Translations under genes and position numbers: made by a program
The notes under the pieces: generated by a model
What the model was told of the DNA's origin: nothing
Seen by the model: only the letters and a program-made list of their open reading frames with translations
Database searches by the model: none
Shown here: positions 18,501-38,648 of the stretch, one piece after another
Position numbering within the stretch: the stretch's first letter is position 1
Layout: each line of letters starts with the position of its first letter
NCBI GenBank assembly: GCA_022799315.1
Contig: JAAWOE010000011.1
Coordinates: forward strand, 6,439-46,438
Direction of reading: 5' to 3'
Source of the DNA: Clostridia bacterium
Lineage (GTDB): Bacteria; Bacillota; Clostridia; TANB77; CAG-508
DNA: 40,000 nt

Positions 18501-18661
18501 ATGAACATGTAGTAATATACGATTAAAAATTCCGTTCTACAAGGCGTTTAAGAATAATTGGTTTTAATAAAAAAGCAACACATTAAACAAAGAATCAGAA
18601 AAAGCGTCGCTTTGCTAAGAAGGTCGAACTCATTTTTACTCTTATATTATTACATGTTCAT
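18501..18661 (+). ncRNA. long-stem CCGTTCTCC/GGTCGAACTC element, copy A (candidate structured RNA)
   Basis: 161 nt. Conserved core flanked by the complementary arms ATGAACATGTAGTAATATACGATTAAAAA and TTTTTACTCTTATATTATTACATGTTCAT. See findings. Confidence 0.55.
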
Positions 18662-18769
18662 TTTAATATTAACCATTTTATTATAAAAAAAGGTCAATTT
18701 AGGTTGTAAAATAGAGCGAAAAATGATATTATTTATGTATGATTTTAAAGTATATACAAAGGAGAAAAT

Positions 18770-19240
18770 ATGTATAAAATTAAAACACAAAAAGGAATAA
18801 CATTAGTATCGTTAATTATAACAATTATAATATTACTAATCATATCTTCAATAGGGATTAACTTTGGGATAAATGGAATTAACAGTACAAAGGATTCTAA
18901 GCTAGAAGCAGAACTAAACATGGTACAACATGCTATTTTAGAACAATATACAAAATATAAAACAACAAAAGATATGGTGTATTTAGTTGGAAATAAAGTT
19001 TCAGAAGAACAATTAAGACAAATTACTGAAGAACTTGAAATAACACTTGTAAACATACCAGATACATATTCTAATAAAGACTATTACAAATTAGACAAAG
19101 CATCGCTAAACAAAATTGGAATACGAGAAACCAACGACGAATATATTGTTAATTATATTTCAGGAGAAGTTATTAACATTACTAAAAAAATATTGAGTGA
19201 CAATAGCCCATTATATACAAAAGCGAATAGTTTTAATTAG
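18770..19240 (+). CDS. prepilin-like N-terminal domain protein (orphan pseudopilin-like)
   Basis: AAAGGAGAA RBS. N-terminus MYKIKTQKG-ITLVSLIITIIILLIISSIG resembles a type IV prepilin leader plus hydrophobic helix, but lacks the canonical Glu5. No pilus assembly genes nearby. Confidence 0.55.
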   Translation: MYKIKTQKGITLVSLIITIIILLIISSIGINFGINGINSTKDSKLEAELNMVQHAILEQYTKYKTTKDMVYLVGNKVSEEQLRQITEELEITLVNIPDTYSNKDYYKLDKASLNKIGIRETNDEYIVNYISGEVINITKKILSDNSPLYTKANSFN

Positions 19241-19262
19241 TATTAAAGGAATGTGAATAAAT

Positions 19263-20180
19263 ATGGATATTGAAAAAGTATATAGTATGTTAACTAGTAT
19301 ACTAACGAATTCTAAAATTTTAAAAAATGAATCTATGTCTAAACATACCTCTTTTAAAATTGGAGGAAATGCAGATATATTAGTAAAAGCAAATAATGAA
19401 AAGGACATTAAAAGTGTACTAGAAATCTCAAATAAAGAAAATATACCGATATATGTAATGGGAAATGGAAGTAACATTTTAGTAAAAGATAATGGTATAA
19501 GAGGCATTGTTCTTATGATTTGTATGGATATATACAAAATAGACAAACAAGAAAATAAGGCTATCGTTACAGCAGGTGCAGGAGTAAAACTTGGAGGTCT
19601 TGCACAAGAACTTTTAAAACAAGAAATTACAGGTTTTGAATTTGCATCAGGAATACCAGGAACTATTGGCGGAGCGATAAGGATGAATGCTGGTGCACAT
19701 GGAAAAGAAATGAAAGATATTGTTGTTACAACAACATATATAGATGAATATGGGAATTTAAAGACAATTTCAAATAAAGAGCAAGAATTTTCATATAGAA
19801 ACAGTGTGTTTAGCAAAAACAAATGGATTATTATAAATACTGTGTTAGAGTTTGAATATGGAACTAAAGAAGAAATACAAGAAAAAATGCAAGAATATGC
19901 AAGGTATAGGAAAGAAAAACAACCTATTACATATCCTAGTGCAGGAAGTACATTTAAAAGAGGAGAGGATTTTATTACAGCAAAACTTATAGATGAATGT
20001 GGATTAAAAGGATACAGTATAGGTGGAGCAAAAATTTCAGAGATTCATGCAGGATTTATTATAAATACAGGAAATGCAAAAGCAGAGGATGTTTTAAAAT
20101 TAGTGGAATACACAAGAAAAAAGGTATATGAAAAATTTAACAAAACAATAGAACTAGAAATAGAAGTAATTGGAGAGTAG
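19263..20180 (+). CDS. murB: UDP-N-acetylenolpyruvoylglucosamine reductase
   Basis: FAD-binding MurB motifs HTSFKIGG, GNGSNIL, GIPGTIGGAIRMNAGAHG and PSAGSTFK. Confidence 0.9.
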   Translation: MDIEKVYSMLTSILTNSKILKNESMSKHTSFKIGGNADILVKANNEKDIKSVLEISNKENIPIYVMGNGSNILVKDNGIRGIVLMICMDIYKIDKQENKAIVTAGAGVKLGGLAQELLKQEITGFEFASGIPGTIGGAIRMNAGAHGKEMKDIVVTTTYIDEYGNLKTISNKEQEFSYRNSVFSKNKWIIINTVLEFEYGTKEEIQEKMQEYARYRKEKQPITYPSAGSTFKRGEDFITAKLIDECGLKGYSIGGAKISEIHAGFIINTGNAKAEDVLKLVEYTRKKVYEKFNKTIELEIEVIGE

Positions 20181-20196
20181 GAAAGGAAAATAAGAA

Positions 20197-37305: not shown

Positions 37306-37384
37306 GTGTTACTTCATAACAGTGAATAATTAACAGTGAATAGTTAATAATGAATAATATAAAAAATATTAGAAGGTGACTTAG

Positions 37385-37720
37385 ATGAATATATATGATA
37401 CTGCAAATCGTTTAGCATATGAAATAAAACAATCAGAGGAGTTTAATAATTATAAAAAACTAAAAGAAGAAGTACAAAATACTCCTGAATTAAAAGATAA
37501 GCTAAATAATTTTGAAAAAGCAAGATATGAAATACAAATTGCAAGTATTCAAGGACAAGAACAAAATAAAGAAAAAGCAGTTGATATGCAAAACTTATAT
37601 CTTGAACTTATTCAAAATGAAACAATGAAAAAATATTTTGACGCTGAATTAAAATTTAATGTACTATTAACAGATGTTAATAAAATTATTGCAGATGCGG
37701 TACAAGATTTAATAAAGTAA
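37385..37720 (+). CDS. YlbF/YmcA family regulatory protein
   Basis: 111 aa. N-terminus MNIYDTANRLAYEIKQSEEFNNYKKLKEEV is typical of the UPF0342/YlbF family. Confidence 0.7.
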   Translation: MNIYDTANRLAYEIKQSEEFNNYKKLKEEVQNTPELKDKLNNFEKARYEIQIASIQGQEQNKEKAVDMQNLYLELIQNETMKKYFDAELKFNVLLTDVNKIIADAVQDLIK

Positions 37721-37782
37721 AAACAAAAGCGAAAGATTTTCTGACCACAATTGGCATACAGGAAAAGGAATGTGATTAAATA

Positions 37783-38475
37783 ATGGAATATATAATAATT
37801 ATTCTAGCAAGTATTGCATTTTTAGCGATACTTGCATTTGTTTTAGAATTAAATATTAAGAAATTAAAAGCTATAGGAGAAAACAAAGAATTAGACGAAT
37901 TAACTAATTTGTTTCCTGAAAATATAGATATTTGTAGAAGTATTTTAAAAATGTTAGGAAATGAAGAAGTAAAAGTAACTGAAGAAAAAGATAGTAAAAC
38001 TAGTTTGTATGTAGTTGTAAATAATTCAATTACCATTGCTAATATTAGAAGTTCTTATACAAGAATTCAAACAATAGCACATGAATGTGTTCATTCTATA
38101 CAAAGAAAGAAAATGCTATGGTTTAATTTCATATATACAAACATATATATGCTATACTTTTTTATAGTATCATTATTAACAGTGTTTAAAGTAATAAATA
38201 CGCCATACATATTTTTAACTATCTTAATAATTATGGGAATGATTCAATACTTTATTAGAAGTGGATTAGAAACAGAAGCGATGATAAAAGCTCGTTATAT
38301 TGCAAAAGATTATTTAGAACAAAATGATATATGTTCTAGTGAAAATATAAAAAGAATTGTAAAAGAATACGATAGACTAAATAATATGGGGATAAAGCTT
38401 GTGAATTTTGATATACTAGCAAGAAATTTTGTTAAGATAATAATTTATTGTGTGGTTTGTATAGTATTTTGTTAA
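37783..38475 (+). CDS. membrane protein with HExxH zinc-metalloprotease-like motif
   Basis: N-terminal TM helix, AHECVHSIQ motif, and two or three further TM helices. Confidence 0.6.
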   Translation: MEYIIIILASIAFLAILAFVLELNIKKLKAIGENKELDELTNLFPENIDICRSILKMLGNEEVKVTEEKDSKTSLYVVVNNSITIANIRSSYTRIQTIAHECVHSIQRKKMLWFNFIYTNIYMLYFFIVSLLTVFKVINTPYIFLTILIIMGMIQYFIRSGLETEAMIKARYIAKDYLEQNDICSSENIKRIVKEYDRLNNMGIKLVNFDILARNFVKIIIYCVVCIVFC

Positions 38476-38491
38476 TAGATAATGGTTATAC

Positions 38492-38648
38492 GAAATGGCT
38501 AAATATAAATATTAAAAACTCCGTTCTCCAAGGCGTTTAAGTATAGTTGGTTTTATAAAGTATACAACACATTATACTGCTTAAAAGAAAAAACTGCGCT
38601 TTGCTCGGTAGGGTCGAACTCATTTTAATATTTATATTTAGCCATTTC
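38492..38648 (+). ncRNA. long-stem CCGTTCTCC/GGTCGAACTC element, copy C
   Basis: 157 nt. Perfectly complementary arms GAAATGGCTAAATATAAATATTAAAA and TTTTAATATTTATATTTAGCCATTTC around the conserved core. Confidence 0.55.

Follow-up and report, generated by a model that had tools for sequence, protein, structure and literature searches.

A palindromic interspersed repeat family of uncultured gut Clostridia, probably a small mobile DNA element

Results

Four copies of a hairpin element in the window

The window, by which we mean the whole 40,000-nt stretch analyzed here (Clostridia bacterium, contig JAAWOE010000011.1, positions 6,439 to 46,438), carries four copies, A to D, of an element that forms a hairpin of 157–163 nt, at a density of approximately one copy per 10 kb. 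Copies A (18501–18661), B (29085–29247), and C (38492–38648) lie on the plus strand and copy D (25421–25573) lies on the minus strand. The genes neighboring the copies are ordinary housekeeping genes (murB, holA, gpr, secG, RNase R, glycogen metabolism, and others). The original prediction, made from the sequence alone, had placed the four copies at these positions and preferred to read them as a new structured RNA. As set out below, they behave instead like a hitherto undescribed, small, mobile repeat at the DNA level in uncultured gut Clostridia.

In each copy, a core is closed by a long inverted repeat. Copy A has 30-nt arms with 90% complementarity around a core of 101 nt, whereas the arms of copy B (30 nt) and copy C (26 nt) are 97% and 100% complementary, respectively; in copy D, approximately 31 of 35 stem positions are paired. 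A repeat finder grouped the three plus-strand copies as one family and returned their closing stems as inverted repeats of 26–30 nt that were 90–100% complementary. The stem thus changes its sequence between copies and stays complementary, as had been predicted. Compensated stem differences between A and B were also real, but there were three of them and not two: positions 4, 9, and 21 of the 5′ arm are matched by positions 27, 22, and 10 of the 3′ arm.

The presence of the four copies and the blocks that they share was confirmed far beyond chance. The sequence GGTCGAACTCATT occurred exactly in all four copies, and five matches were obtained when up to two mismatches were allowed, a count reached by 0 of 100 shuffles. 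The block TCCGTTCTCCAAGGCG was present in A–C with at most one mismatch, and its match count was likewise reached by 0 of 100 shuffles. A profile built from 36 family members recovered exactly copies A–D within the window and nothing else (nhmmer E = 1.8e-23 for copy A, profile E = 6e-14 for copy D). The sole open reading frame (ORF) overlapping the element is a mechanical one of 42 aa.

Two short boxes mark the ends of the core. Box L is located at 18531–18542 in copy A (TCCGTTCTACAA, invariant alignment columns), and at 29115–29126 and 38520–38531 in copies B and C by pattern match; in copy D, it was read from the sequence and by a box scan at 25532–25543 on the minus strand. Box R is located at 18622–18634 in copy A (GGTCGAACTCATT, by exact pattern match and alignment of the copies), and by pattern match at 29208–29220 in B, 38612–38624 in C, and 25449–25461 on the minus strand in D. 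Copies A–C belong to subfamily 1a. Copy D, which had been regarded as degenerate, shares with them only the two core ends and has a different interior; it is a member of a distinct subfamily, subfamily 2, with relatives of its own (L006 and L020).

The element is a family of low-GC gut Clostridia

A pattern derived from the two conserved ends was scanned over a collection holding one genome per species. It yielded 21 loci, of which 20 were in uncultured gut Clostridia of low GC content (rabbit, human, mouse, and goat hosts), and one, GC-rich, was attributed to chance. A looser pattern gave 18 further loci in metagenomes. Matches that were GC-rich or had no flanking inverted repeat were discarded (L021 and the metagenome matches L047, L049, L053, and L059). 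After removal of duplicates, approximately 39 distinct copies remained, from about 25 genomes and metagenomes of uncultured gut Clostridia.

Alignment of 36 copies indicated that all subfamilies have just two blocks in common, namely box L (TCCGTTCTnCAA) and box R (GGTCGAACTCnTT), and that the interior between them is of at least three unrelated types across the family. The boxes extend the stem through A/T pairs, a two-base mismatch with a bulged C, a 4-bp GTTC/GAAC helix, a second two-base mismatch, and a C-G pair. On the top strand, the tandem mismatches at either side of the GTTC/GAAC helix are T·C/C·T; the bottom strand has G·A/A·G there. This helix contains one covarying pair (GTTT/AAAC), found in three copies. 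Each copy is flanked by an inverted repeat whose length ranges from 18 to over 55 nt and whose sequence differs between lineages. Rearranged forms were also present: L011 (2480–2900) carries a head-to-tail array of at least two complete units and the 3′ end of a third, in which the 3′ arm abuts the next 5′ arm, and the L057 copy is chimeric, with its two arms derived from different subtypes.

No known family accounted for the element. A scan of the whole window against Rfam 15 gave no match at the gathering threshold, and a permissive scan of copy B found nothing (best E-value 4.8), in line with the earlier statement that no RNA class could be matched. Core sequences had no BLAST match in plasmid and phage collections. 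A scan of viral contigs gave two matches, both without a flanking inverted repeat and hence ascribed to chance, and a full-text literature search on the box sequences returned unrelated primers only.

The closing stem behaves as a symmetric DNA repeat

We examined the arms of all copies pair by pair. They contain 1210 Watson–Crick pairs, 9 G·T pairs, 10 A·C pairs, and 90 other mismatches. An RNA helix under selection tolerates G·U pairs but not A·C pairs. The equal and very low counts of the two therefore indicate a symmetric DNA repeat without a G·U signature. The two strands were predicted to fold alike, with z = −8.2 for the top strand and z = −7.5 for the opposite strand. Complementarity is copy-specific, being 0.72 within copies against 0.49 between copies in an ungapped register, and most positions show 2–4 pair types.

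The arms are also layered. Copies from the same genome share the inner arm, beyond which each has 4–9 private additional complementary pairs. Examples of such private extensions are AAAGTCG/CGACTTT and ATAAATCCT/AGGATTTAT in one metagenome-assembled genome, and GAAT/ATTC versus AGAAA/TTTCT in two nearly identical copies of another genome. Template switching between inverted repeats is known to homogenize the arms and can invert spacers (PMC7202029, PMC8604942). Layered arms together with the compensated differences between A and B are the pattern produced by polymerase template switching between arms, and arm complementarity is probably kept by this process. Quasi-palindrome template-switch mutagenesis (PMC7202029, PMC8604942) similarly yields differences on both arms together, turns imperfect repeats into perfect ones, and can invert spacers; it differs in being a mutational process rather than an element, and is invoked for the present element by inference.

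Interior helices do not covary

The original prediction had described covariation in three helices and had proposed a statistical test of it. We tested the interior structure on the seven closest copies by comparing its score with those of 500 shuffles. No pair was changed on both sides, and the covariation score was reached by 457 of the 500 shuffles. The "third helix", said to covary, occupies different columns in the three plus-strand copies (i+j = 87 in A, 88 in B, and 93 in C), indicating three different chance pairings in A+T-rich sequence. One of these pairings is common to C, L007, and L013, in which its sequence is identical. The inner helix CAAGGCG/CGCTTTG does pair in A–C, including the G·T pair that had been pointed out, but does not covary: its 5′ strand does not vary within the family, and most family members and subfamilies lack the 3′ partner. 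RNAalifold, run on the 36 copies and on the seven closest ones, recovered only the GTTC/GAAC helix and a trivial A/T helix. The covariation is confined to the long stem and to one GTTC/GAAC pair.

Copies are gained, lost, and truncated between close relatives

The genes flanking each copy were looked up in other assemblies, with orthologs of the flanking proteins used for relatives. All four window copies are missing at the same loci in relatives of which the neighboring proteins are 84–97% identical, and the profile search found no copy in any inspected orthologous stretch of the relatives, against four in the window. The loci were met in three states: empty, with a single-arm stub, and with a full element. 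The intermediate alleles each hold a single arm of the local element, with scores reached by 0–1 of 500 shuffles. Assemblies of the same species were mostly identical base for base over the elements, with exceptions at loci A and B.

At locus A, the spacer is 445 nt in the window versus 304 and 248 nt in relatives; the element is absent in L083, and L088 has a solo 3′ arm only. In a strain with an identical flanking protein (L022), a REPIN of the GTAGGGG type (see below) is found between degenerate arms. At locus D, the spacer is 386 nt versus 160 and 55 nt in relatives; the element is absent in L076–L079, and L080 retains a solo arm only. At locus C, the window has a spacer of 345 nt, against 184 nt in relatives with 97% identity and 126–128 nt in those with 84–89% identity. 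In the closest relatives (L073–L075, flanking protein 97% identical), 161 nt corresponding to 38498–38658 of the plus strand are missing, and a diverged solo arm is retained. Directly 3′ of C, at 38649–38674, lies a degenerate direct copy (TAGTAAATTTGTTAAAGAAAAATATT) of the 5′ arm of C and its flank, with 19 of 22 positions matching the arm (score reached by 1 of 500 shuffles), which looks like the remnant of a second, tandem unit. Given this copy after the C hairpin, the 184-nt allele is best read as a recombinant between it and the 5′ arm of C, with a loss of 161 nt. We had also considered this allele as the site before insertion, and the left target flank, duplicated in inverted form, as the source of the outer stem of C; this was dropped since the supposedly empty L073 carries the diverged solo arm.

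At locus B, one strain (L030) has a different subfamily 1a copy in the opposite orientation, with different arms, approximately 10 nt from the position of B, and the relative L080 (93% identical) has an unrelated insert of about 190 nt instead of copy B. This GC-richer segment (L080, 9540–9740) has at its end a well-formed hairpin resembling a terminator (AGCCCCCTTATTAAAGGGGCTTTTGT), whose strand is opposite to that of the flanking genes, and may, judging from these sequence features, be a candidate small RNA gene; its best Rfam match was insignificant (ARRPOF, 18 bits against a threshold of 127 bits). Copy B is in addition a site of assembly breaks. Nine independent Logan contigs (L027–L036) stop inside it, eight at 29188 and one 7 nt further in (29181), and the element thus breaks short-read assemblies systematically.

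Outside the hairpin, on one or both sides, A, B, C, and L013b have another motif in common, which is approximately 25 nt long and more degenerate. This motif is absent in the truly empty allele at locus A, so that the mobile unit is probably larger than the perfect hairpin, at 200–220 nt or so. At locus A, the full block spans approximately 18469–18674 on the plus strand, that is, the hairpin and about 30 nt of more degenerate outer flank per side, as judged from the alignment with the empty allele L083. The sequence GATAATGGTTA was tried as a target motif near the insertion point and rejected, as it showed no enrichment over background across all copies; it belongs to the outer, older layer common to subfamily 1a copies.

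Genomic context of the copies

All copies of the family are intergenic, as had been claimed for those in the window. Many begin 10–20 nt past the stop codon of the upstream gene, and seven lie in convergent or divergent spacers. Promoter-like sites were no more common in the element than in shuffled sequence, and none of copies A–D has a T-tract after the stem.

A resemblance to the MOBV nick region

Read on the bottom strand, the core of subfamilies 1a and 1b contains AAAGTATAGTGTGT(T), or, written with the nick, AAAGTATAGTGTG/T(T), and this block is the most conserved interior segment of the two subfamilies. It is identical over 13–15 nt to the MobM contact site and nick (G/T) in the origin of transfer (oriT) of pMV158 (PMC5863519). 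In copy B, the corresponding plus-strand sequence is TAACACACTATAC at 29161–29173, the complement of which (GTATAGTGTGTTA) is identical to the nick region of the pMV158/pUB110 oriT, with a score within the shuffle null. When B, L007, and L013b were aligned to the whole of pUB110, the best match fell exactly on the nick site, but its scores were within those of shuffled controls. The resemblance was recognized post hoc. The block is absent in subfamilies 2 and 3, which retain the boxes. The element has no hairpin of the IR1 type at the MOBV distance (8 nt upstream of the nick), and no relaxase, HUH, or mob gene was found next to any copy in the window or at the inspected loci. Compared with the MOBV oriT (RS_A type, pMV158/pUB110), the element therefore shares the 13–15-nt identity and an A+T-rich, hairpin-forming context, but lacks the properly spaced IR1 hairpin and an adjacent mob gene, is chromosomal and multi-copy, and has a match that is statistically insecure and missing in two subfamilies. 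We regard this identity as a lead only, toward a possible nicking enzyme, and not as a finding.

Other repeats and genes in the window

Two other repeat families were observed. In one, a GC-rich palindrome comes after a GTAGGGG(C/T)G head; this family is found in the window at 6948–6970, 8347–8502, and 39148–39171, as well as in L001, L009, L015, L022, L046, and L050. These repeats occur singly or as inverted pairs approximately 155 nt apart, resembling repetitive extragenic palindromes (REPs) and their paired form, REPINs, and suggest a system of the REP-associated tyrosine transposase (RAYT) type in the same genomes. The other is a hairpin (GAGTCCGCTYCATC...CACGTGRAGCTAC) with a nested 53-nt palindromic insert, at 25288–25376 and 30268–30350; at the first of these sites, the relative L080 has the hairpin without the insert. 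A permissive Rfam scan of this hairpin gave only meaningless miRNA matches.

Several observations concern genes and spacers. Copy D is located 77 nt upstream of the start of the germination protease gene (Peptidase_A25, 25650–26589), which is split into ORFs of 80 and approximately 237 aa in the window and all assemblies of the same species. The protease is a single ORF of 312 aa in L076 and L080, and the split represents a fixed frameshift or recoding. The delta subunit of DNA polymerase III is encoded by two adjacent ORFs for its N- and C-terminal domains (24237–25263) in the window and all relatives inspected. Two tandem 53-nt units that are 94% identical (CGAGATTAAAGTAAGACATAGGGGCTTACAGATTGGCG...) lie at 3145–3248 between an ORF of 872 aa and the next gene, with no Rfam match at the gathering threshold; the 872-aa ORF is probably uvrA, judged solely from two ABC motifs of the LSGGE type. 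Another intergenic indel polymorphism was found at 27945–28000, where about 53–57 nt including a terminator-like hairpin (27972–27991) are missing in the same-species assembly L067.

Discussion

Here, we established that the four copies belong to a dispersed multi-copy family with several subfamilies, in which a long inverted repeat is closed on an asymmetric core of approximately 100 nt, and that copies undergo gain, loss, single-arm truncation, tandem arrangement, and recombination between close relatives. Considering these results, the four elements are probably a non-autonomous interspersed palindromic DNA repeat, resembling MITEs (miniature inverted-repeat transposable elements) or foldback elements, which spread recently in a lineage of low-GC gut Clostridia. 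The element is small and non-coding, has terminal inverted repeats, albeit of unusually variable arm sequence, and occurs as dispersed copies with insertion polymorphism. A MITE had earlier been held less likely on the grounds that a transposase and direct duplications were lacking. Indeed, the window contains no transposase gene and no clear duplication, but these points do not outweigh the insertion polymorphism.

The mechanism of mobilization is inferred as follows. The conserved boxes and the arms that are free to change would be explained if the boxes were recognized by a protein acting in trans. This protein could be a transposase or some other enzyme of DNA, and its substrate may be a hairpin extruded from single-stranded DNA. 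The arms would stay complementary, and lengthen in a copy-specific manner, by polymerase template switching between them, which makes selection for an RNA fold unnecessary. Any transcript of the element would be a by-product, although it might still alter the stability or termination of neighboring mRNAs.

Some observations weigh against a MITE-like or foldback-like repeat. Ordinary MITEs are conserved most strongly in their terminal repeats, whereas here the arms are the least conserved and the center is the most conserved. No clean target-site duplication was found, and nothing of the kind flanks the hairpin itself; the full blocks are flanked only by imperfect A/T-rich candidates of 5–9 bp (TTTTCTTAT/TTTTATTAT at A and ATAGTATTT/ACAATATTT at C). 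No autonomous parent or transposase with matching ends was found in approximately 0.9 Mb of related DNA, and a search for isolated boxes gave no widely spaced box pair or solo box accompanied by an ORF, the matches being chance ones within coding sequence. The alleles of the closest relatives are stubs and not pristine empty sites, so that the order of insertion and deletion is only partly settled. Finally, the orientation of the copies is biased: between genes of the same direction, 19 copies are sense and 7 antisense. With respect to local GC skew, the count was 29 of 40, or approximately 23 to 9 by locus, but the skew mostly mirrors gene orientation and was rejected as an independent gauge of replication direction. 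The bias is real but modest. It could mean a strand-specific function at the level of RNA or single-stranded DNA, and three explanations account for it to the same degree: selection acting on transcripts that read through, a preference for one DNA strand at the replication fork, and a smaller number of harmful insertions in one orientation.

The reading preferred in the original prediction, a new family of structured non-coding RNAs, now seems quite unlikely. The copies would then be paralogous genes for small RNAs or cis-acting mRNA elements, and the conserved core closed by the long stem would be a binding site for a protein or ligand or a target of RNase III. Strong predicted folds, invariant boxes, and the covarying pair in the GTTC/GAAC helix would suit this reading, as would the sense bias, the many starts shortly after a stop codon, and the G·T pair of CAAGGCG/CGCTTTG in A–C, which is G-C in relatives and legal only on the top strand. 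However, the opposite strand folds as well, approximately 1300 stem pairs contain no excess of G·U over A·C, the interior has no compensatory pair and a third helix with a shifting register, and the interior differs wholly between subfamilies. In addition, the element occurs in both orientations, 7 of the 26 copies between same-direction genes being antisense; copy A is situated past a terminator-like hairpin of the upstream gene; no Rfam family matches; and all four window copies are absent in close relatives. A hairpin acting at the level of DNA or single-stranded DNA, given as the alternative in the original prediction, is a live possibility. One form of it, to which we assign a similarly low probability, is a single-stranded-DNA hairpin transposon or mobilizable site, of which the boxes are read by an HUH nuclease or relaxase that nicks in the large loop. 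The bottom-strand identity to the MobM site, its place in the most conserved segment of subfamilies 1a and 1b, and the position of the best pUB110 alignment favor this form, and the orientation bias is compatible with one strand being used when the replication fork passes. Other recombination hairpins of single-stranded DNA have strand-selecting irregularities, which the conserved, asymmetric stem mismatches resemble. Against these stand a post hoc match with scores within the shuffle null, the lack of the motif in two subfamilies that have boxes, the missing hairpin upstream of the putative nick, and the lack of a relaxase or HUH gene beside any copy. Moreover, a relaxase active at a single nick site does not alone account for the movement of a 160–220-nt unit.

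Two further explanations carry still less weight. A DNA site recruited by the host and spread by recombination, serving as a platform for a regulator or nucleoid protein or as a bidirectional terminator or insulator, would fit the strictly intergenic positions, often directly after stop codons, and the invariant boxes. It is nevertheless very unlikely: the apparent resemblance of box R to Spo0A (TGTCGAA) and CtsR (GGTCAAA) sites, which would also favor it, amounts to single half-sites, the stems lack a T-tract, the neighbors are unrelated housekeeping genes, and the fast turnover of copies between close relatives speaks against a conserved host role at each locus. The flagellar and cwpV switches of C. 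difficile are alike in size and layout, with inverted repeats, a core of approximately 100 bp, intergenic positions, and both orientations. An inverton, in which a site-specific recombinase flips the asymmetric core between the inverted repeats and thereby switches a promoter, is accordingly conceivable, and the oppositely oriented core at locus B in one strain could be taken as a flip; still, we consider it barely plausible. The reversed L030 copy has different arms and flank and is hence a separate copy, and the assembled contigs at A–D (up to approximately 20 per locus) show one orientation wherever the element is present. Furthermore, the inverted repeats differ between copies and are unfit for one recombinase, no convincing core promoter or adjacent recombinase was found, and the density of the element is far higher than that of known switch families. 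Other likenesses considered (tRNA T-arm, k-turn, integron attC, group II intron domain V, Y RNA, and Spo0A, CtsR, or Fur boxes) were dropped, since their defining features are missing.

As a MITE-like or foldback-like repeat, the element can be compared with known systems. The palindromic repeats Correia (Neisseria), ERIC/IRU (enterobacteria), RUP/BOX/SPRITE (pneumococcus, PMC3049150), and bcr1 (Bacillus cereus group) are likewise non-coding, intergenic, and 100–220 bp in length, form a long hairpin over their whole length, and have many dispersed copies in both orientations, the presence of which varies between close relatives; subfamilies and internally deleted forms are also common to both. 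They differ in conserving their terminal repeats and in having clear short target duplications (often TA or TTTAT), whereas in the present element the arms vary, the box pair atop the stem is conserved, and neither a clear duplication nor a parent insertion sequence was found. REPs and REPINs of the RAYT (TnpA-REP) systems are similarly hairpin-forming interspersed units of approximately 100–150 nt that are probably handled as single-stranded DNA in trans. Their arrangement is the reverse of that seen here, with conserved GTAG-headed, GC-rich palindromes at the ends and a variable middle. The arms of the element are A+T-rich, and GTAG occurs only in the arm type of A, B, L013, and L019, which sets it apart from REPs as defined. 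Genuine REPs or REPINs of the GTAGGGGCG type co-occur in the carrier genomes, and one of them replaces the core at locus A in one strain. With the structured RNAs of Rfam 15, the element shares a conserved core enclosed by a long helix, a layout found in several large non-coding RNAs of bacteria, but it has no match at the threshold or with a meaningful E-value and no covariation in the interior.

A bolder proposal, which we put forward as unlikely but not negligible, is a structure-defined mobile element of a kind undescribed in bacteria. Here, any sequence that folds into the hairpin would count as the mobile unit, and the enzyme would read the mismatch-GTTC/GAAC-mismatch structure in single-stranded DNA. 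This enzyme might be HUH or relaxase-like, given the nick sequence in the loop that is identical to that of MobM. The arms would not be recognized, and would be extended outward layer by layer as neighboring DNA is copied by fold-back or template switching. If true, this would explain the copy-specific outer stems, the onion-like arms with shared inner and private outer layers, the solo arms, and the missing ordinary target duplications.

The results also have a methodological meaning. Homogenization of inverted repeats at the DNA level mimics covariation, and an element of this type can therefore be mistaken for a structured RNA. Counting G·U against A·C pairs and checking for empty sites are cheap safeguards against such a mistake. 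If the element is indeed a MITE-like or foldback-like DNA repeat, it would be a high-density repeat that remodels the intergenic regions of abundant uncultured gut Clostridia. Its conserved center and free arms suggest recognition by structure and not by terminal sequence, which would be informative on how hairpin DNA is mobilized.

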